In this document: piece by piece, positions 1 through 5,801 of the stretch
Position numbering within the stretch: the first letter of the stretch is position 1
Layout of the letters: each line of letters opens with the position of its first letter
IMG/VR virus record: IMGVR_UViG_3300045988_010436
Span: 1-5,801 of that record
Source: a virus
Reading direction: 5' to 3' (one strand)
Length of the DNA stretch: 5,801 nt
Made by a program: the position numbers and the translations under genes
The notes under the pieces: generated by a model
What the model was told of the DNA's origin: nothing
The model's database searches: none
Seen by the model: only the letters and a program-made list of their open reading frames with translations

Positions 1-119
1 ACGCGGGTCAACTCATTCCATTCTATGTCGATGAGGTGTTACCGGGTGACACATTCAGCATCGACCAAGCCGCAATTATCCGCATGACTACGCCTATCTT
101 CCCGGTTATGGACAACTGC
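1..119. repeat. Terminal direct repeat, left copy: circular-genome assembly overlap identical to 5683-5801.
   Basis: Base-by-base reading shows 1-119 equals 5683-5801. The repeat lies inside the VP1 reading frame and joins it seamlessly. Unit length is 5682 nt. Confidence 0.97.
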
Positions 120-1544
120 CACATGGACATCTACTATTTCAACGTTCCGTGTCGCATCCTCTGGGAGCACTTCAAACGGTTTATGGGCGAGAACGATGAA
201 GGACCGTGGACGCAAACAAACAACTACTACATTCCACAGGTGAGTGTAGTCGGAACAGAAAACAAGCCAGCACCTTATGAAGGGAGCATCATGGACTACA
301 TGGGCATTCCTACAAAGGTGAGCAAAGGAGACAGTACAAAATTCAGCGTTAACGCACTGCCGTTCCGCGCATACGTCATGATTTGGCAGGAATGGTTCAG
401 AGACCAAAATTTAGACAATCCGGCCATCAACAGCACGAAAGACGCAACTGCCATCTACACTGACGATGAGACAAAGGGCATGGACGCAAAAACACCTGAC
501 ATTGAGTATATTCTCCAGAACGCATACACGGGCGGCAGACCGCTGCCGGTAAATAAATACCACGACTACTTCACATCGGCTTTGCCAACCCCTCAGAAAG
601 GGCCGAGTGTGAGTATCCCATTAGAGGGAAACGCCCCAATATTCGGATACAGCGACCACCAAAGAACAAAGATAGGCGATCCATCAGGAGTCAATAATCT
701 CCAAAACCAGAACATACCGCTTGGAATTGTAGGAACAAGCCCACAAAATGTTCCAGTATACCTAGGCGCAAAGATGGATAGAGTAACAGCCGCAACCGTC
801 AATCAGCTGAGACAGGCGTTTCAGGTACAAAAATACTATGAGCAGCTGGCACGCGGTGGCAGCCGTTACCGCGAGATGATTTATTCACTGTTCCATACGA
901 AAATCAGCGATAAAACGGTACAAATCCCAGAGTATCTGGGCGGTACGCGAATCACCATCAACATGAGTCAGGTCATCCAGACCAGCAGCACGACCACCGA
1001 AAGTCCGCAGGGCAACACGGCAGCAATAAGTGTTACGCCGTACAACGGGAGCATATTTACGAAGAGCTTCGAAGAGCACGGCTATGTTATCGGCGTATGC
1101 TGCATCCGACATGACCATACCTACCAGCAGGGCTTGGAGCGCATGTGGAGTCGCAAAACAAATCTGGATTTTTACTATCCTGCGTTTGCAAACTTGGGCG
1201 AGCAGGCCATTCTGAAGAAGGAGCTGTATCTCACTGGTACGAGCACTGATGAGCAGGCCTTTGGTTATCAGGAAGCTTGGGCAGAATACAGGATGAAGCC
1301 GAACCGCATTAGCGGCAAGTTCCGTTCGAATGCAACGGGGACGTTGGACAGCTGGCACTACGGCGACAACTACAAAGAAGTTCCGAGCCTGAGCCAGGCA
1401 TGGATGAAGGAAGGAGACTCCGAGATTCAGAGGACTCTGGCCGTGGATAACGAGCCGCAGTTTATCATGGATACCGTCATCGACAATACGTCTGTAAGAC
1501 CTATGCCTATGTACAGCATCCCGGGTCTCGTAGACCATCACTAA
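1..1544 (+). CDS. VP1: Major capsid protein VP1 (phiX174 F-like), 3' portion. The ORF enters the window already open; the first full codon starts at nt 3 and the true start is ATG 5586 across the circular junction.
   Basis: The frame is open from nt 3 to TAA 1542-1544. The sequence ...NAGQLIPFYVDEVLPGDTFSIDQAAIIRMTTPIFPVMDNCHMDIYYFNVPCRILW... is the conserved N-terminal signature of Microviridae major capsid proteins. Joined to 5586-5682 it gives 1641 nt (546 aa), a typical gokushovirus VP1 size. Confidence 0.96.
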   Translation, partial: AGQLIPFYVDEVLPGDTFSIDQAAIIRMTTPIFPVMDNCHMDIYYFNVPCRILWEHFKRFMGENDEGPWTQTNNYYIPQVSVVGTENKPAPYEGSIMDYMGIPTKVSKGDSTKFSVNALPFRAYVMIWQEWFRDQNLDNPAINSTKDATAIYTDDETKGMDAKTPDIEYILQNAYTGGRPLPVNKYHDYFTSALPTPQKGPSVSIPLEGNAPIFGYSDHQRTKIGDPSGVNNLQNQNIPLGIVGTSPQNVPVYLGAKMDRVTAATVNQLRQAFQVQKYYEQLARGGSRYREMIYSLFHTKISDKTVQIPEYLGGTRITINMSQVIQTSSTTTESPQGNTAAISVTPYNGSIFTKSFEEHGYVIGVCCIRHDHTYQQGLERMWSRKTNLDFYYPAFANLGEQAILKKELYLTGTSTDEQAFGYQEAWAEYRMKPNRISGKFRSNATGTLDSWHYGDNYKEVPSLSQAWMKEGDSEIQRTLAVDNEPQFIMDTVIDNTSVRPMPMYSIPGLVDHH

Positions 1545-1608
1545 AGTATTTCGTTATTGTTATTCTAAAATAGCAATAATATAACGTAACAACGACAAAA
1601 ATAAGAAT

Positions 1609-1633
1609 CCTCAGCTGAGAGTGTCAGCTGAGG
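1609..1633 (+). other. Perfect 10-bp stem / 5-nt loop hairpin in the VP1-VP2 intergenic region.
   Basis: CCTCAGCTGA (1609-1618), loop GAGTG, TCAGCTGAGG (1624-1633). The arms are exact reverse complements and each carries CAGCTG. No T-run follows. Confidence 0.8.
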
Positions 1634-1656
1634 CCTCAACTGACGAAAGGGGGGAA

Positions 1657-1686
1657 GCCCGGGGCAAAACCCCGGGCTATTTTATT
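1657..1686 (+). terminator. Rho-independent terminator-like hairpin after VP1, probably leaky/attenuating.
   Basis: GCCCGGGG (1657-1664), loop CAAAA, CCCCGGGC (1670-1677): a perfect 8-bp all-GC stem followed by TATTTTATT (1678-1686). It ends directly at the VP2 ATG. Confidence 0.6.
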
Positions 1687-2535
1687 ATGGCATTAGCAGC
1701 AATCGGCAGCGCACTACTCGGAATCGGCAAACAACTACTCCCAACAATCGCCGGAGGACTCATAAACAAATTCCTAGGCGGGAATCTGATGGAAAGCAAT
1801 GGGGGGAGCAGTCAGCACAACGAAAGTTCGAGCCAAGGAGGCGGCTACAGCAGCGCCGCCAGCGGCGTAAACCGAGAGCAAAATCTACAAGACTGGAACA
1901 GTATGCTAGGGGCAATTCAAGGCAATATGCAAAGCCAGCAGAAGTTTAACCGTCGGAGCATGTTCGAGCAAATGGGCTATAACACCATGGCAGCAATCAC
2001 TCAGGGTGTATATAACCAGATAAGCAACAACGCAGCGATGAGCTACAACAGCGCAGAAGCAGCCAAAAACAGAGCTTGGCAAGAGCAAATGAGCAATACA
2101 GCTTATCAGCGAGCTGTGGAAGACATGCGAAAAGCTGGCATCAACCCTATCTTAGCATACCAACAGGGCGGAGCGAGCACGCCGGGAGGCGCACAGGGCA
2201 CTATCAGCGGGGCAAGTATGGGTCTCGCAAGCAGCAGTGCGGCGAACGCAAGCGCTCTCGGAGTAAGCCAGAACCACAACAACACATGGAGCAAAAGCGA
2301 AAGTAACTGGTACAACGCAGCACAAGCGGTCGGAGACGCTACAAGCTGGTCCCACACAAGCGCAGACAAAGCGTTTAACGCATTCAAGGACGTCTTCAAC
2401 GACCTCAGCAACCTAAACAGTGGCGTCGGCGGAGGTGTAGGGAGAAAACCAAAAAAAGATGAGCTCGAATACAAACCGGGAAGAGACTTCATTGGAAGCA
2501 AAAACATCGAATTTTGGAAAGGAAAACTTAAATAA
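1687..2535 (+). CDS. VP2: Minor capsid / DNA pilot protein VP2 (phiX174 H analogue), 282 aa.
   Basis: ATG 1687 is in frame with track ORF 1621-2535. The N-terminus is Gly/Ala/Leu-rich (MALAAIGSALLGIGKQLLPTIAGGLINKFLGG). The low-complexity Ser/Gly/Gln/Asn body contains the conserved gokushovirus VP2 block NTAYQRAVEDMRKAGINPILAY. Its position directly after VP1 fits the family. GTG 1621 lies inside the upstream hairpin and has no RBS. Confidence 0.88.
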   Translation: MALAAIGSALLGIGKQLLPTIAGGLINKFLGGNLMESNGGSSQHNESSSQGGGYSSAASGVNREQNLQDWNSMLGAIQGNMQSQQKFNRRSMFEQMGYNTMAAITQGVYNQISNNAAMSYNSAEAAKNRAWQEQMSNTAYQRAVEDMRKAGINPILAYQQGGASTPGGAQGTISGASMGLASSSAANASALGVSQNHNNTWSKSESNWYNAAQAVGDATSWSHTSADKAFNAFKDVFNDLSNLNSGVGGGVGRKPKKDELEYKPGRDFIGSKNIEFWKGKLK

Positions 2536-3555
2536 ATGGGATGCAACAAACCGTTAATCCGGTTTTATGTACCTCATGATAGAGAGGCGAGCGGGCGAGT
2601 ATACTCACTCGCTTCTTTCAACAAAGTTCATAAGACCGAAATGAAATATGAAGACCTGATGTATCGGAAAGATGTAATGATGATTCCTTGTGGACAATGC
2701 ACAGGATGCAAACTACGCAAACGCAAAGACTGGGCCACGCGGATGGAGCTAGAAGCATACAGTCACGACAAGGAAAGCATCTGGTTCATCACACTGACCT
2801 ATGATGACGACCATATACCAACACAGGACACGGAAACAGGAGAAATCTTCAAAGGGGGCGTGAACGTCTGGAAAGACACCTCAGAGCGTCCCAGAACGGT
2901 GCAAACTTTAAGCGTAGAGGATGTCCAGTTATTCATGAAAAGGCTTAGAAAAGCCGTCAGCGGGCCTCTCAGATACTTCCTAGCCGGAGAGTATGGAGAC
3001 AACACCTCAAGACCACACTATCACATGATACTATACGGGTGGTATCCGGACGACTTAGAGCCGATTCACAAACTGTCAAGATTCGGACACTACACGAGCG
3101 ATAAACTAATCAAAGTCTGGGGGCAAGGGACAGTTGACATAGCTCAAGCAACACCAGAGACATATAACTACGTAGCCGGATATGTGACCAAGAAACTATA
3201 CGGAAACGACAAGGACAGGTATAGGAAAATGGGACTCATACCGCCATTCTGCGTAATGAGCCGAAAACCAGGACTCGGAGACGAGTGGTTTCAAAAGAAT
3301 CAAGAAAGGCTATGGCAACTTGGATACATCCAGCTGACAAACGGCAAGAGAGCAGCCATTCCAGAATATTATTGGCGAAAGCTGGAAGCTGAAAATCCTG
3401 AAAAGGCGTGGAGAATAAAGCAGTATCGACAGGAAAAAGCCATTGCATCCCTAATCGAAAGAAACATGGAAACTGACAAACGGTATGCCGAACAACTAGC
3501 CGATAAAGAAGCAATCATGAAGAAGAAGATGTCCAAAGCAAAGGGCGTTTTTTAG
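2536..3555 (+). CDS. VP4: Replication initiation protein VP4 (HUH rolling-circle endonuclease, phiX174 gpA family), 339 aa.
   Basis: The ATG abuts the VP2 stop (TAA-ATG). Cys cluster PCGQCTGCKLRKRKDW; motif 1 FITLTYDD (from nt 2785); HUH motif PHYHMILYG (H-Y-H at 3016-3024); double-tyrosine catalytic motif YVAGYVTKK (compare phiX174 YVAKYVNK). Confidence 0.96.
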   Translation: MGCNKPLIRFYVPHDREASGRVYSLASFNKVHKTEMKYEDLMYRKDVMMIPCGQCTGCKLRKRKDWATRMELEAYSHDKESIWFITLTYDDDHIPTQDTETGEIFKGGVNVWKDTSERPRTVQTLSVEDVQLFMKRLRKAVSGPLRYFLAGEYGDNTSRPHYHMILYGWYPDDLEPIHKLSRFGHYTSDKLIKVWGQGTVDIAQATPETYNYVAGYVTKKLYGNDKDRYRKMGLIPPFCVMSRKPGLGDEWFQKNQERLWQLGYIQLTNGKRAAIPEYYWRKLEAENPEKAWRIKQYRQEKAIASLIERNMETDKRYAEQLADKEAIMKKKMSKAKGVF

Positions 3556-3564
3556 CTCTGGTGT

Positions 3565-3621
3565 CACTCAGCCAAGTAACTATCAAGTATATATACTTGG
3601 CTGAGTGTTTTTTAGTTTTTT
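3565..3621 (+). terminator. Strong rho-independent terminator downstream of VP4.
   Basis: CACTCAGCCAAGTA (3565-3578) pairs perfectly with TACTTGGCTGAGTG (3594-3607): a 14-bp stem with a 15-nt loop. It is followed by TTTTTTAGTTTTTT (3608-3621). The loop region also contains the palindrome CAAGTATATACTTG. Confidence 0.85.
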
Positions 3622-3625
3622 ATCA

Positions 3626-3666
3626 GCGCGCGCGCACGCGCGCATAATTGCGCACGCGCACGCGCG
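3626..3666. repeat. Alternating purine-pyrimidine, almost pure GC imperfect palindrome (cruciform / ssDNA hairpin; Z-DNA-prone).
   Basis: Arms 3627-3644 and 3649-3666 pair at 15 of 18 positions (14 G:C plus 1 A:T; three C/A mismatches) around loop TAAT (3645-3648). Strict Pu-Py alternation runs over 3626-3646 and 3649-3666. The element is flanked by T-rich and AT-rich DNA. Confidence 0.9.
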
Positions 3667-3714
3667 ATTTTTATTATATTATTATTAACTTGTTGTAGTC
3701 GTAGTAGTAGGGAG

Positions 3715-3888
3715 TGTTGAAATGTTGAATACTATGAATTTTTATCCTTGGAACGATATTTTCTGGTTAATTTTGATGTTGATACTTTTGTGGATAACTT
3801 GTTGAATTGTTGAAAGTGTAGCAATATGCACAAAAACCTTTGTGCAACATTTTGTGGAAAACCTGTTGAAAGTGTTGAAAGTGTTGAA
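3715..3888 (+). repeat. Iteron array: seven exact TGTTGAA copies, including three tandem 9-mers.
   Basis: TGTTGAA at 3715, 3723, 3800, 3808, 3864, 3873 and 3882. Tandem TGTTGAAAG TGTTGAAAG TGTTGAAAA spans 3864-3890. Variants are TGTTGAT (3777) and TGTTGTA (3691). A 21-nt direct repeat TTTTGTGGAWAACYTGTTGAA lies at 3786-3806 and 3850-3870 (19/21 identical). Confidence 0.9.
3789..3861 (-). promoter_or_regulatory. Cluster of DnaA-box-like 9-mers.
   Basis: 3789-3797 TGTGGATAA is the reverse complement of the perfect consensus TTATCCACA. 3853-3861 TGTGGAAAA corresponds to TTTTCCACA, which fits TTWTNCACA. There are 8/9 matches at 3824-3832 (ATATGCACA, + strand) and 3841-3849 (TGTGCAACA, - strand). 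These two form the arms of an 8-bp hairpin: TGCACAAA 3827-3834 and TTTGTGCA 3839-3846, loop AACC. Confidence 0.55.
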
Positions 3889-3929
3889 AATGTAATTAGA
3901 GGCAGTTCGGCAGCTGACCGAAAAGTTAC

Positions 3930-3969
3930 GTCATGCTCTTCGTACGGCGCACCGCGCCTAGCGCATGAC
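3930..3969 (+). other. Compound GC-rich stem-loop upstream of the promoter.
   Basis: Outer 7-bp stem: GTCATGC (3930-3936) with GCATGAC (3963-3969). Inner 5-bp stem: GGCGC (3946-3950) with GCGCC (3954-3958), loop ACC. A smaller hairpin sits just upstream: TTCGG (3906-3910), loop CAGCTGA, CCGAA (3918-3922). Confidence 0.65.
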
Positions 3970-3974
3970 CTCTC

Positions 3975-4023
3975 AAAAAAAGTTTCAAAAAACTATTGAC
4001 AAATCTCAAAAGTATGGTATAAT
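3975..4023 (+). promoter_or_regulatory. Near-consensus sigma70-type promoter with extended -10 and an UP-element-like A-tract region.
   Basis: -35 TTGACA (3996-4001), 16-nt spacer, TGg extended motif (4015-4017), -10 TATAAT (4018-4023). A7 (3975-3981) and A6 (3987-3992) tracts lie upstream. Predicted start near 4030, about 20 nt before the ORF at 4050. Confidence 0.8.
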
Positions 4024-4049
4024 ATAATCAAAGAAAGGCGGAGAATAAA

Positions 4050-4247
4050 ATGAGAAAACCACGATTGAGCGAAAACACCATAGGGAAACTCGAAATTTAC
4101 GGACACGCAGAATCCGGAAAAAACTACTACGAACTGAAAGACTACATCGACGCAAAAGGAAAATGTTACACGGTGCTTGAATGGACAAACCTTAAGAACG
4201 GAGATGCAAAACAATTCGATTGGGAAAAATGCACAAAAGAGGCTTGA
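4050..4247 (+). CDS. Orphan 65-aa soluble protein in a stand-alone promoter-ORF-terminator cassette; function unknown.
   Basis: SD GGCGGAGA (4037-4044) lies 5 nt before ATG 4050. The consensus promoter is immediately upstream and a terminator overlaps the stop. The protein is Lys/Glu/Asp- and aromatic-rich, with 2 Cys and no hydrophobic segment. I recognise no family motif. Confidence 0.7.
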   Translation: MRKPRLSENTIGKLEIYGHAESGKNYYELKDYIDAKGKCYTVLEWTNLKNGDAKQFDWEKCTKEA

Positions 4248-4265
4248 CGAGTCTCTTTTTTTTTT
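4235..4265 (+). terminator. Rho-independent terminator of the 65-aa ORF cassette.
   Basis: AAAAGAGGC (4235-4243) pairs with GTCTCTTTT (4251-4259), including one G:U. The loop TTGACGA contains the stop codon. A 10-T run (4256-4265) follows. Confidence 0.65.
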
Positions 4266-4372
4266 ATATACTAAAGGCAATCAAGCAGCACAGAAGTACA
4301 TTTAACAAATTCCATTTTTACAAAATAACATTATGAAAGAGGTGAACTGCTCTGACTCTCCAAGAAATCAAG

Positions 4373-4456
4373 ATGCTGTTTGAAAACATCCAAAAAATCC
4401 TTGCCATGCTGGACAAAATCTACCACGCAGTAACAGGGGACAAACCGGAGGCTTGA
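4373..4456 (+). CDS. Possible 27-aa leader ORF (MLFENIQKILAMLDKIYHAVTGDKPEA); weak call.
   Basis: ATG 4373 to TGA 4454-4456, which ends 1 nt before the ATG of the next ORF. No convincing SD lies upstream, and the ORF is very short. Confidence 0.2.
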   Translation: MLFENIQKILAMLDKIYHAVTGDKPEA

Positions 4457-4457
4457 A

Positions 4458-4685
4458 ATGGAAAACAAACCATGGAATGTAAGAGACCAGACCGACGAGA
4501 ACCTTATGCAAGAGTTGACGAAAACCTACAAGGCAATAGACGCCGCGTACAAAATGGTACGACAGGCAACAAACATCGAAGACGCAAAGTATTATATTGA
4601 CATTGCGTTTAGAAAAAAAGCATCTGCCAGTAACATTGAGGTGGAAATCCTCAGAAGGGAAATCAACCATGGCAAAGAGGAGTAA
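4458..4685 (+). CDS. Orphan 75-aa charged, probably helical protein; function unknown.
   Basis: Strong SD GGAGG (4447-4451) lies 6 nt before ATG 4458. Its 3' end overlaps the J-like gene start by 17 nt, as expected for compact phage organisation. No motif recognised. Confidence 0.6.
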   Translation: MENKPWNVRDQTDENLMQELTKTYKAIDAAYKMVRQATNIEDAKYYIDIAFRKKASASNIEVEILRREINHGKEE

Positions 4686-4788
4686 AGTCCGCAAATCCAA
4701 AGACGCAAAAATCTACAACAAGACCGCACGAAAGACAAAGGCAATCAACCTTGGAAGCGGCGCAATGAGAGGGGGAATCCGACTGTGA
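4669..4788 (+). CDS. Small basic DNA-binding/packaging peptide (phiX174 J / Chlamydia-phage ORF8-like), 39 aa.
   Basis: MAKRSKVRKSKDAKIYNKTARKTKAINLGSGAMRGGIRL has an Arg/Lys-rich N-terminal half and the C-terminal MRGGIRL/F motif that I recall from gokushovirus ORF8-type peptides. ATG 4669 is in frame with track ORF 4597-4788. The upstream ATG 4597 adds a non-basic extension with no RBS. Confidence 0.75.
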   Translation: MAKRSKVRKSKDAKIYNKTARKTKAINLGSGAMRGGIRL

Positions 4789-4883
4789 GTGCTGTATTCG
4801 CAAGCATGACTATGGCATTTCTCGCAGCGGGGTTTTACCTCGTCATTAACACAATCGACATCATCAAAGAATGGTTCAAATAA
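4785..4883 (+). CDS. Unannotated 32-aa hydrophobic (single transmembrane helix) peptide; below the ORF-track size cut-off.
   Basis: GTG 4785 overlaps the J-like stop (GTGA). SD-like AGGGGG (4770-4775) lies 9 nt upstream. The translation is (M)SAVFASMTMAFLAAGFYLVINTIDIIKEWFK. TAA 4881-4883 runs into the next gene's SD (TAAGGAG). The ORF exactly fills the otherwise unexplained 107-nt gap. An alternative in-frame ATG is at 4806. Confidence 0.5.
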   Translation: MSAVFASMTMAFLAAGFYLVINTIDIIKEWFK

Positions 4884-4895
4884 GGAGACAATCAT

Positions 4896-5132
4896 ATGAA
4901 CGTATACGGAATTTTCGATAAATGCGTGATGGGCTATATCACCATCTTTACCGAACGTGACGACAAGGTGGCCGAACGCAATTTCAAAATCGCACTGACC
5001 GATGACCGGAATATCATGAGCAAGACTCCGAACGACTATCGGTTGGTGCGCCTGGCAAAGTTTGACGAGAAAACGGGCCTGTTTGAGAACGAAAAGGAGA
5101 ACATCTTCGATGGCGTATCGCTCAGTAAGTAA
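4896..5132 (+). CDS. VP5: VP5-like non-structural protein of gokushoviruses, 78 aa.
   Basis: SD AAGGAG (4882-4887) lies 8 nt before the ATG. The pattern MNVYGIFDK...ERNFKIAL...TPNDYRLVRLAKFDEKTGLF matches my recollection of the conserved Y.I.D / A.R.F / P.DY.L...G.FD..TG layout of VP5-type proteins. Its position just upstream of VP3 also fits. Confidence 0.7.
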   Translation: MNVYGIFDKCVMGYITIFTERDDKVAERNFKIALTDDRNIMSKTPNDYRLVRLAKFDEKTGLFENEKENIFDGVSLSK

Positions 5133-5589
5133 TTTCAGAGAGACTACAATAGCAAAACCCACCGAAGCCGGAGAGACCGTGAGGCGCACATACCTCTGGG
5201 AACTCAACGAGAAAGGCGAAAAGGTGCTAACGCTTGACCAGATCATCGACCAGCAGGCGGAAATCGACAGCTTCCTTGAAGAAACCAAGCTGGAAAACAT
5301 CATCCGGCGAGCATCCATCGACCCTGACATTGCAGCTAGGCTGATGCCGGATATGGGCGGTGGACTCCAGGACGCAACCGACATGCCGGAGAATCTGATG
5401 GAGCTCCAAAACATCATGCTCCGAGCAGAACAAATCTGGGATGAAATCCCGAAAGAAATCAAGCTCAAGTTTGACAATGACGTTGACAAGTTTGTCGCAA
5501 GCTTCGGCACTGTTGACTGGGCGAAGAATCTGGGCATTTATCAGGAAAAGCAGCCTGAAGAGCCTAAAAAAGAGGAGACCGCTGAATGA
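5110..5589 (+). CDS. VP3: Internal scaffolding protein VP3, 159 aa.
   Basis: SD AAGGAGA (5094-5100) lies 9 nt before ATG 5110, in frame with track ORF 5062-5589. The protein is acidic and helical, with a C-terminal block IPKEIKLKFDNDVDKFVASF typical of gokushovirus scaffold proteins. The stop overlaps the VP1 start (ATGA at 5586-5589). Confidence 0.82.
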   Translation: MAYRSVSNFRETTIAKPTEAGETVRRTYLWELNEKGEKVLTLDQIIDQQAEIDSFLEETKLENIIRRASIDPDIAARLMPDMGGGLQDATDMPENLMELQNIMLRAEQIWDEIPKEIKLKFDNDVDKFVASFGTVDWAKNLGIYQEKQPEEPKKEETAE

Positions 5590-5801
5590 ACAGAAACAAA
5601 GATGCAGGATTCAACCAGGTACCACGGCTGGACATTACGCGAAGTCGCTTCAAACGGCGGCAGGACGTCAAGCTAACGATGAACGCGGGTCAACTCATTC
5701 CATTCTATGTCGATGAGGTGTTACCGGGTGACACATTCAGCATCGACCAAGCCGCAATTATCCGCATGACTACGCCTATCTTCCCGGTTATGGACAACTG
5801 C
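5586..5801 (+). CDS. VP1: Major capsid protein VP1, 5' portion (start codon to window end); 5683-5801 duplicates 1-119.
   Basis: SD GAGGAG (5570-5575) lies upstream of ATG 5586. The translation MNRNKDAGFNQVPRLDITRSRFKRRQDVKLTMNAGQLIPFYVDEVLPGDTF... is the canonical Microviridae capsid N-terminus. It continues in frame into nt 3 of the window through the overlap. Confidence 0.95.
   Translation, partial: MNRNKDAGFNQVPRLDITRSRFKRRQDVKLTMNAGQLIPFYVDEVLPGDTFSIDQAAIIRMTTPIFPVMDNC
5683..5801. repeat. Terminal direct repeat, right copy (assembly overlap of the circular genome).
   Basis: Identical to 1-119. Confidence 0.97.

Follow-up and report, generated by a model that had tools for sequence, protein, structure and literature searches.

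The window analysed here (5,801 nucleotides, positions 1 to 5,801 of IMG/VR virus record IMGVR_UViG_3300045988_010436) holds a complete circular gokushovirus genome of 5682 nt, whose bases 1-119 recur at 5683-5801. The + strand carries all of the genes: VP1, the capsid protein (Phage_F), VP2, the replication protein VP4 (Rep), several small open reading frames (ORFs), VP5, and VP3. The 494-nt gap between VP4 and an ORF of 65 amino acids (aa) contains the subject of this report, a discrete non-coding module of about 225 bp (3667-3890) built around candidate binding sites (boxes) for DnaA, the initiator of bacterial chromosome replication. On the + strand an AT-rich tract comes first, followed by five triplets of the TAG type, the spacer GGAG, a tandem pair of boxes, some 45 variable bases, and eight further boxes (Table 1). 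A first-pass annotation, made from the sequence of this stretch alone, had reported an oriC-like element at this site. The element is real but larger than had been described, starting at about 3667; the AT-rich tract, the triplets at 3696-3710, the GGAG spacer, and the boxes at 3715-3731 had gone unflagged.

Table 1. Coordinates of the module, its parts, and neighbouring features in the window.
Feature	Position	Strand	Basis or remark
VP4 Rep	2536-3555	+	REP_ORF2-G2P
Terminator-like hairpin and T-run after VP4	3565-3613	+	Remains next to VP4 in genomes with an inverted module
GC-rich block of alternating purines and pyrimidines (GCGCGCGCGCACGCGCG..., GCGCGCGCGCACGCGCGCATAATTGCGCACGCGCACGCGCG)	3626-3666		Between VP4 terminator and module
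AT-rich tract, 22/22 bases A or T	3667-3688		Position of the DNA-unwinding element in bacterial origins
AACTTGTTGTA, near-invariant phage-specific element	3687-3697	+	Between AT-rich tract and triplets
DnaA-trio run TAG TCG TAG TAG TAG	3696-3710	+	5'-TAG-3' is the published 3'-GAT-5' motif (PMC8287927)
GGAG, 4-bp G-rich spacer	3711-3714		Between triplets and first box
Two proximal tandem host-type DnaA boxes, TGTTGAAAT and TGTTGAATA	3715-3731	+	8-bp period
Variable spacer between proximal and distal boxes	3732-3776		Conservation mostly about 0.4-0.7; 0.8-0.9 near 3741-3748
Distal cluster 1: TGTTGATAC, TGTGGATAA (3789-3797), TGTTGAATT, TGTTGAAAG	3777-3816	+	Box matches
Linker: 8-bp hairpin (3827-3846) and conserved TTTGTGCAAC (3839-3848)	3817-3852		Repeat and hairpin search
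Distal cluster 2: TGTGGAAAA, TGTTGAAAG, TGTTGAAAG, TGTTGAAAA	3853-3890	+	Periods of 11, 9, and 9 bp
Consensus promoter TTGACA-16-TGnTATAAT, A-tracts before it	3996-4023	+	12/12 hexamer matches

Under the host-type definition TGTKGAW, ten boxes are found, all on the + strand, at 3715, 3723, 3777, 3789, 3800, 3808, 3853, 3864, 3873, and 3882. A stricter 8-mer, TGTKGAWA, matches nine times in the window, against 0.74 matches expected, and eight of the nine fall within the module. The features on which the first-pass annotation was built are all present at the coordinates it gave: a perfect match to the DnaA-box consensus, TTATCCACA, on the - strand at 3789-3797; a second, relaxed-consensus box, TTTTCCACA, at 3853-3861; a 21-nt direct repeat, 3786-3806 and 3850-3870, identical at 19/21 positions (90%); an 8-bp hairpin with arms at 3827-3834 and 3839-3846; and seven exact copies of TGTTGAA on the + strand between 3715 and 3888, with tandem 9-mers at 3864, 3873, and 3882. 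For TGTTGAA, 1.1 copies would be expected in the whole window, and none of 200 shuffles reached eight. The expectation of 0.004 quoted for a perfect 9-mer is arithmetically correct. The two boxes of 8/9 quality said to form the hairpin arms do exist (3824-3832 on the + strand, 3841-3849 on the - strand), though only against the relaxed consensus TTWTNCACA, and the window shows no enrichment of matches this good (16 observed, 10.7 expected).

Two pattern scans of IMG/VR returned at least 119 stretches each, almost all of them microvirus genomes of 5.3-6.2 kb. The module occurs in more than 180 gut gokushovirus genomes; we gathered 187 unique microvirus contigs, in 182 of which it is present and its position could be scored. 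Relative to the window, the VP1 proteins of the 187 are 39-100% identical and the VP4 proteins 33-100% identical. Conservation at the syntenic position, which had been proposed as a check, was borne out in relatives retrieved with the VP4 peptide only: the box cluster is present in all 27 whose VP4 is at least 87% identical, and absent from two distant relatives (VP4 30-39% identical) found by the same retrieval. In megablast comparisons, GenBank gokushoviruses of human, pig, and monkey faecal origin match 3776-3890 at 83-88% identity, with the rest of the genome unmatched. A blastn search matched parts of the intergenic region in 42 microvirus records.

Aligned with one another, 126 unique modules yield the consensus TATATATAACTTGTTG-(TAG)5-GGAC-TGTGGAAA-TGTTGAAAAC for the left part of the module and, for the right part, about 45 variable nt followed by TGTTGAAAG.TTTGTTGAAAACTTGTTGAATTGTTGAAAG, a linker with TTTGTGCAAC, and TTGTTGAAAACCTGTTGAAAGTGTTGAAAGTGTTGAAAAC. 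Column conservation is 0.9-1.0 in the boxes, boxes and triplets stand far above the spacer between them, and distal cluster 2 is the most conserved stretch of all. The triplet site has at least four TAG triplets in 120 of the 126 modules and a run of at least three in 115, and TTGTGCA of the linker is found in 108. WAYTTGTTGTA, the general form of AACTTGTTGTA, is present in 122; the element resembles the junction between adjoining boxes (GAAAACTTGTTGAA) and, weakly, AACTTG, the nick-site core in phiX174. The perfect E. coli-type box at 3789-3797, which had been treated as the key feature, is a variant: TGTGGATAA occupies this position in 32/126 modules, and the consensus there is TGTTGAAAA (70/126). 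At the position of the second box (3853), TGTTGAAAA is found in 69 modules and TGTGGAAAA in 53. Because these variants interchange at the same positions, the supposed "DnaA boxes" and "iterons" must be viewed as one repeat, TGTKGAWAA.

When one genome per bacterial species was searched for a pair of adjacent boxes (TGTKGAAAACNTGTTGAAA), 120 stretches matched, and 25 of these adjoin dnaA and/or dnaN. The dnaA locus makes up about 0.1-0.3% of a genome, so fewer than one such match would be expected by chance. The densest arrays, with 9-29 boxes, come from Ruminococcus, Oscillospiraceae, and Eubacteriales genomes and fill the spacer between dnaA and dnaN, as recognized by the Pfam domains Bac_DnaA and Bac_DnaA_C and by three DNA_pol3_beta domains. 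In Ruminococcus and Oscillospiraceae, the spacers are filled by arrays of TGTTGAAAA and TGTGGAAAA. The TGTTGAA repeats, earlier interpreted as iterons interleaved with separate DnaA boxes, are themselves the DnaA-box dialect of oriC in the host lineage. Comparison of 162 sites in nine host spacers with 1134 sites in phage modules gives shares of 47% and 31%, respectively, for TGTTGAAAA, 17% and 10% for TGTGGAAAA, and 15% and 27% for TGTTGAAAG. The fourth position of the box is T in 76% and G in 23% of host sites, as against 86% and 13% in the phage modules, and the flanking-base preferences are common to both. A Spo0A box (TGTCGAA, which the pattern TGTNGAA would fit) was considered for the repeat and rejected, as position 4 is C in 0% of sites and TGTCGAA occurs in one of the 126 modules.

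Host and phage also share a layout. Read from dnaA to dnaN, the host spacers end in ...TTTTCCACA-GTTTCAACA-CCCC-CTACTACTACTACTA-AT-rich, that is, box-box-CCCC-(CTA)5-AT-rich. The reverse complement, AT-rich-(TAG)5-GG(G/T/A)N-TGTTGAAAC-TGTGGAAAA, aligns base for base with the phage module, the counterpart in the window being ATTATTATTAACTTGTTG-TAGTCGTAGTAGTAG-GGAG-TGTTGAAA-TGTTGAATA. In the hosts the triplets are (TAG)5, the spacer between triplets and boxes is GGGC, GGGG, GGTA, or GGGA, the proximal site has two tandem boxes with a period of 8 or 9 bp, and an AT-rich stretch likewise lies beyond the triplet run. The WAYTTGTTGTA element was not found at the equivalent position in the host origins compared. 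One Oscillospiraceae origin is collinear with the phage consensus at 67% identity over 205 nt; this is the best match to any single host origin, and long homology to one origin was rejected. Metagenomes were scanned with the pattern W(TAG)5GGNNTGTKGAAA, designed to exclude the phage's own flank; 111 of the 120 matching stretches lie next to dnaA and/or dnaN, and VP1 and VP4 are absent from all of them. The signature is thus a hallmark of chromosomal origins. Nor was VP1 or VP4, as a prophage or binned copy, seen in any of the 120 stretches from the genome scan.

Published host calls, based on CRISPR or prophage evidence (Table S1 of PMC9239249), name Faecalibacterium (Firmicutes, Clostridia, Oscillospiraceae) for all 12 module-bearing GenBank relatives that have a call, while 14 have none. 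MG945382, which is assigned to Faecalibacterium and was missed by BLAST, also carries the module. These calls are independent of the origin comparison, and the two agree at the family level. The host is most likely an Oscillospiraceae bacterium, with Faecalibacterium the genus named by the published predictions. The A-tract consensus promoter of the window and the peptidase M15 genes of relatives are likewise in keeping with a Gram-positive host. Of the origin loci retrieved in the genome scan, none has the GC content of about 57% expected of Faecalibacterium.

The basal unwinding system (BUS) of bacterial origins consists of tandem boxes, a short GC-rich gap averaging 4 bp, at least three 3'-GAT-5' DnaA-trios on the 5' tail, and AT-rich DNA beyond; the rules used to search for it allow up to two mismatches between box and species motif and a spacer of 0-16 bp, and call for at least three consecutive NAN triplets (PMC8287927). 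Of the proximal boxes, TGTTGAAAT departs from the host-lineage motif (TGTTGAAAA/TGTGGAAAA) at one position and TGTTGAATA at two; judged by the E. coli motif, both have three mismatches, which exceeds the limit. The proximal boxes of many relatives read TGTGGAAA(A), with one or two mismatches even to the E. coli motif. The GGAG spacer is within the permitted range, and TAG TAG TAG (3702-3710) adjoins it, with a TAG and a TCG further 5'. On the strand that reads TGTGGATAA, the triplets lie 5' of the boxes and the AT-rich tract lies beyond them, a polarity that matches six dnaA-dnaN spacers and the 111 metagenomic origins. The location is not that of a BUS, which is chromosomal and beside dnaA/dnaN; the module sits in the genome of a microvirus, with VP4 on one side and a small ORF on the other. 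It looks like a BUS, and from its sequence would work like one, yet it is not a chromosomal origin.

In Bacillus subtilis incC, box groups proximal and distal to the trios are both needed, and the locus takes its name from the inhibition of chromosomal initiation by plasmids that carry it (PMC6669920). The phage module has in common with incC/BUS the order and polarity in which AT-rich DNA, three or more triplets, a GC-rich gap of about 4 bp, and tandem boxes follow one another, as well as the distal group, and its core is near-identical to that of Oscillospiraceae and Ruminococcus origins. It differs from a chromosomal BUS in its place, on a 5.7-kb single-stranded DNA (ssDNA) virus and not beside dnaA or dnaN, in the extra invariant AACTTGTTG between AT-rich DNA and triplets, and in its lack of an upstream (incA/B-like) half. 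Its ten boxes all point the same way; in host origins, boxes of both orientations are mixed.

The module has the same sense as the genes and lies downstream of VP4, as in the window, in 139 genomes. In the other 43 of the 182 it runs against the sense of the genes: five have it between the same terminator and promoter, and 38, which form a clade with VP1 about 40% identical to that of the window, have it between VP2 and VP4. The boxes within a module all point in one direction, with a median of nine forward and none reverse. As ssDNA the module folds no better than shuffled sequences (z = -0.07), while its flanks are structured (z = -6.6 and -2.2). A perfect hairpin of at least 7 bp occurs in only 65 of the 126 modules, its arms are poor boxes, and the hairpin was rejected as the functional core of the module on these grounds and on that of the fold score. 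The occurrence of both orientations, the lack of single-strand structure, and the one-way boxes together indicate that the module acts on double-stranded DNA (dsDNA). In sequence, in polarity, and in its two-part arrangement of boxes it corresponds to the origin-unwinding region of the host lineage, and it is strongly conserved in either orientation.

We consider it probable, at roughly 0.6, that in 3667-3890 the phage carries a copy or mimic of that half of the host chromosome origin where unwinding takes place (the dnaA-dnaN spacer, incC in B. subtilis, which contains the BUS). The original suggestion of an oriC-like module aimed at host DnaA is to that extent supported. Its function we infer from the published BUS model and from the match in layout. 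Once the phage genome has been converted to the double-stranded replicative form (RF), host DnaA-ATP would bind all ten boxes, which share one orientation and the pattern TGTKGAWAA (TTWTCMACA when read from the opposite strand), and the distal clusters would raise the local concentration of DnaA. From the two proximal boxes a DnaA filament would extend across GGAG onto the TAG triplets of the + strand and open the adjacent AT-rich DNA. Opening would permit loading of the host helicase and priming, and the RF would replicate from an oriC-type origin alongside the rolling-circle nickase activity of VP4. Many RF copies with ten boxes each would also sequester DnaA from the host origin, as follows from the known incompatibility effect of incC.

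Several observations weigh against this interpretation. The HUH motif (HYH) and the two-tyrosine motif (YVAGYVTK) of VP4, as read from its sequence, are both kept; rolling-circle replication therefore appears intact, and a second origin is not obviously needed. The cultured gokushoviruses SpV4, phiMH2K, and Chp2 have no such module, which is thus not essential to the subfamily. The likeness to host origins is one of motifs and layout (67-97% identity over 36-205 nt) rather than of long contiguous homology, it does not tell capture from a host apart from convergence, and the match to the predicted host genus holds at the level of the family only. The oriC of B. subtilis has two parts, and on its own incC may be unable to sustain autonomous replication. 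Finally, recognition of TGTTGAAAA by DnaA is presumed from its position in origins, and the relaxed E. coli consensus requires C where the boxes of the module have A, so that affinity could be low.

The module might instead be a sink or sensor that binds DnaA and never fires, its RF copies titrating DnaA and stopping host initiation or, in a variant of the idea, coupling phage activity to the host level of DnaA-ATP. Ten boxes per genome would suit such a role, and the datA locus, DnaA-box clusters, and incC on multicopy plasmids offer an analogy, all of them titrating DnaA. Chromosomal initiation is inhibited when incC is placed on plasmids (PMC6669920), and with the rolling-circle motifs of VP4 intact no second origin is strictly needed. 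Boxes alone would suffice for titration, however; in the module the triplet run, the G-rich spacer of 4 bp, the AT-rich tract, and the proximal box pair are all conserved in register with host origins. This in-register conservation points to selection for the formation of a filament on ssDNA, that is, for unwinding; a pure titration role is less likely than unwinding, and we think it rather unlikely.

It is more doubtful still that DnaA assists rolling-circle replication, melting the AT-rich DNA and AACTTGTTG so that the HUH nickase of VP4 can cleave, with the module forming part of a double-strand origin. The near-invariant, phage-specific WAYTTGTTGTA lies exactly where the duplex would be expected to open, and it contains AACTTG, the phiX174 nick-site core; to our knowledge, the rolling-circle origin of gokushoviruses has not been mapped. 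But the same element also looks like an ordinary box-box junction, inversion of the module in 43/182 genomes would mean that the non-coding strand is packaged, and the cultured gokushoviruses and the two distant relatives do without the module altogether. The unexplained invariance of AACTTGTTG is the one observation that suggests such a hybrid.

The remaining explanations are disfavoured because of the orientation data and because the repeats are shared with hosts and with elements that have no VP4. A transcription switch, in which DnaA bound to the module would control the neighbouring promoter, had been offered as an alternative in the first-pass annotation. The promoter is perfect and lies 106 nt downstream of the last box, and DnaA is a transcription factor at Bacillus box clusters (PMC3245932). 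The distance to the -35 hexamer is nevertheless long, the module has no fixed position or orientation relative to any promoter (five genomes have it turned round between the same terminator and promoter, and 38 have it between VP2 and VP4), and the triplets and spacer are left unexplained. Such a switch is therefore quite improbable.

An origin for the complementary strand, at which a DnaA box in a hairpin of the viral single strand would nucleate an ABC-type primosome, was the explanation initially preferred and is now largely refuted. The window does have its 8-bp hairpin flanked by good boxes, and the single-strand initiation sites of R6K and pBR322 are generally known precedents. In such a site the stem is a double-stranded DnaA box on the packaged strand; here the good boxes are outside the hairpin and the arms are 8/9 matches to the relaxed consensus only. 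One-way boxes cannot pair into double-stranded boxes in ssDNA, both orientations occur, neither the fold score nor the frequency of the hairpin is that of a conserved structure, and the structured flanks are better candidates. The probability left to it is very small. Equally slight is the chance that the repeats are iterons for VP4 or another phage protein, in the style of plasmids or CRESS viruses, and resemble DnaA boxes by coincidence: they are direct repeats beside an AT-rich tract in an intergenic region next to the Rep gene, but they are unchanged across VP4 proteins only 33% identical, fill host dnaA-dnaN spacers, occur on elements that have no VP4, and are accompanied neither by a conserved stem-loop, as in rolling-circle origins of the iteron type, nor by any other phage protein conserved across the module-bearing clades.

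As a probable phage-borne unwinding region, the module can be set beside several known systems. With the theta origins of plasmids and phages (P1 oriR, pSC101, F, RK2, R6K) it would share the recruitment of host DnaA, via boxes, by an extrachromosomal replicon. Those origins depend on a plasmid-encoded Rep that acts on its own iterons, with DnaA as a helper, and we know of none among them described with DnaA-trios or a full BUS; the phage encodes no theta-type Rep. Like the R6K A site and pBR322 (ABC primosome), the module would have a small replicon use DnaA, but those sites need a double-stranded box in an ssDNA hairpin, while the module has no conserved hairpin box and is found in either orientation. 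The PriA site of phiX174 and the primase origin of G4 are likewise non-coding replication signals of the microvirus family, but they are structured ssDNA and independent of DnaA, while the module has no single-strand structure. The injection-stop region of phage T5 reportedly has DnaA boxes whose role is not initiation. The same is true of boxes outside oriC at E. coli datA and in the B. subtilis clusters (PMC3245932). So far as they have been described, all three are devoid of the triplet, spacer, and AT-rich unwinding arrangement that the phage module has.

Microviruses are the textbook case of rolling-circle replication, with PriA or primase serving synthesis of the complementary strand, and DnaA is not known to play any part. 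A literature search found nothing that links Microviridae or gokushoviruses with a DnaA box, oriC, or DnaA, nor anything that links DnaA-trios with a phage. This suggests that a bacterial BUS carried by a virus is new for this virus family. The presence of a complete, host-matched origin-unwinding module in more than 180 genomes further suggests that a large gut clade recruits the initiator of its host. Faecalibacterium is a keystone gut bacterium for which we know of no microvirus infection shown in culture. A survey of microvirus diversity states that microviruses in Gram-positive bacteria had only just been reported and concludes that microviruses rarely, if ever, swap genes with their hosts (PMC9239249); the module would be non-coding DNA captured from, or converged on, the host. 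The agreement between box dialect and the independent Faecalibacterium calls offers a route to host prediction, and a minimal natural variant of 225 bp in three arrangements would be a test bed for the BUS model.

A wider conjecture, which we offer tentatively, is that the RF can replicate as a DnaA-dependent minichromosome of the oriC type, in step with the host cell cycle and in a plasmid-like carrier state, and that portable BUS modules are common. If this is true, a microvirus that has no integrase would gain a carrier state in Faecalibacterium or other Oscillospiraceae, with VP4 rolling-circle replication reserved for genomes to be packaged. A portable BUS tuned to the host dialect would then be a common type of origin on mobile elements (microviruses, dsDNA phages, and integrative elements), and hosts could be read from viral sequence.

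Similar modules do occur on other mobile elements. The metagenome contig Ga0233364_1000335 (L404, 57% GC) has, at 4050-4560, the series AT-rich-(TAG)5-GGGC followed by eight boxes, all pointing one way and including GAAAACCTGTTGAAAGTGTTTAAAG, with 75% identity to the phage consensus over 121 nt. The series lies beside genes for a large serine recombinase and a helix-turn-helix repressor, with neither dnaA nor dnaN; this is an integrative element unrelated to the phage that uses an origin-like cassette of similar kind. The canonical form, (TAG)3-NNNN-TGTGGATAA, was found on 17 IMG/VR contigs of 12-160 kb (L321-L337), where it reads (TAG)3-6-GGGN-TGTGGATAA-TGTGGATAA, in many cases with further boxes in the same orientation. 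Some of the contigs that were checked carry phage genes (RecT, endolysin-like, Holliday-junction resolvase), and no full dnaA or dnaN was found near the canonical modules on any of the 17. A dsDNA phage fragment with HNH endonuclease genes (IMGVR_UViG_3300032038_001038, L164, 30% GC) has 13 TGTTGAAAAC boxes at 10700-11200, together with a strong promoter, CTTTGTGCAA motifs, and an AT-rich stretch of about 100 nt; TAG triplets and microvirus genes are both absent from it, and no GenBank phage matches its box array. That unrelated phages and an integrative element have such modules may point to a class of portable, DnaA-dependent origins so far unrecognised. Unwinding modules carried by phages may prove widespread, though as yet undescribed. 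A plasmid origin was rejected as the source of the module, which has no match in PLSDB, and hits on the long IMG/VR contigs L051, L069, L071, L072, and L156 were set aside as chance matches in coding repeats.

Dense TGTTGAA arrays, some with TAG triplets, were also seen in other phyla, in the stretches L210, L256 (Mesoaciditoga), L244 (Athalassotoga), L215, L184 (Anaerolineae), and L275, with no dnaA or dnaN in the 8 kb covered for each of these six. The box dialect is therefore not unique to Oscillospiraceae. In the DnaA proteins encoded beside five origins of the TGTTGAAAA type (L236, L188, L257, L196, and L193), the DNA-binding domain reads G(G/N)RDHSTIVY or GGRDHSTVVY in four, and NGRHHSTIVY in that of L257. 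The E. coli sequence is GGRDHTTVLH, and the Thr-to-Ser and His-to-Tyr changes fall at base-contacting positions; the changes might be a cause of the altered box preference.

The left arm of the hairpin is TGACGAA or TGACGGA, beside TTTGTGCAA, in 54 of the 126 modules. The window reads TGCACAAA at this arm, and it is this change that creates its hairpin. The same pair of motifs is found in the dsDNA phage fragment L164 (11140-11160) and in or near the dnaA-dnaN spacers of L188 and L193, in L188 at the dnaA end in possibly coding sequence. TGACGAA is a known variant of the Spo0A box.

Among the neighbours of the module, the consensus promoter drives the 65-aa ORF at 4050-4247. With its A-tracts (3975-4028) it matches an intergenic early promoter in Enterococcus phages of the Herelleviridae (PP582184, PP582187), at 87% identity over 54 nt; this match, which has no boxes near it, was rejected as a clue to the host and taken only as a sign of a generic strong promoter of the Firmicutes type, not of homology. 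Many module-bearing relatives (among them L002, L004, L006, L007, and L008) have a peptidase M15 gene between VP4 and VP5, a gene that the window lacks, its 4050-4890 region holding small unannotated ORFs only. On the other side of the module, the terminator-like hairpin would shield it from VP4 transcription. A block comparable to the GC-rich one at 3626-3666 is present in 129 of the 187 module-bearing genomes and remains on the VP4 side when the module is inverted. Terminator and block together make up the strong ssDNA fold with z = -6.6, and the block could be a real single-strand origin or a structure sensitive to supercoiling.

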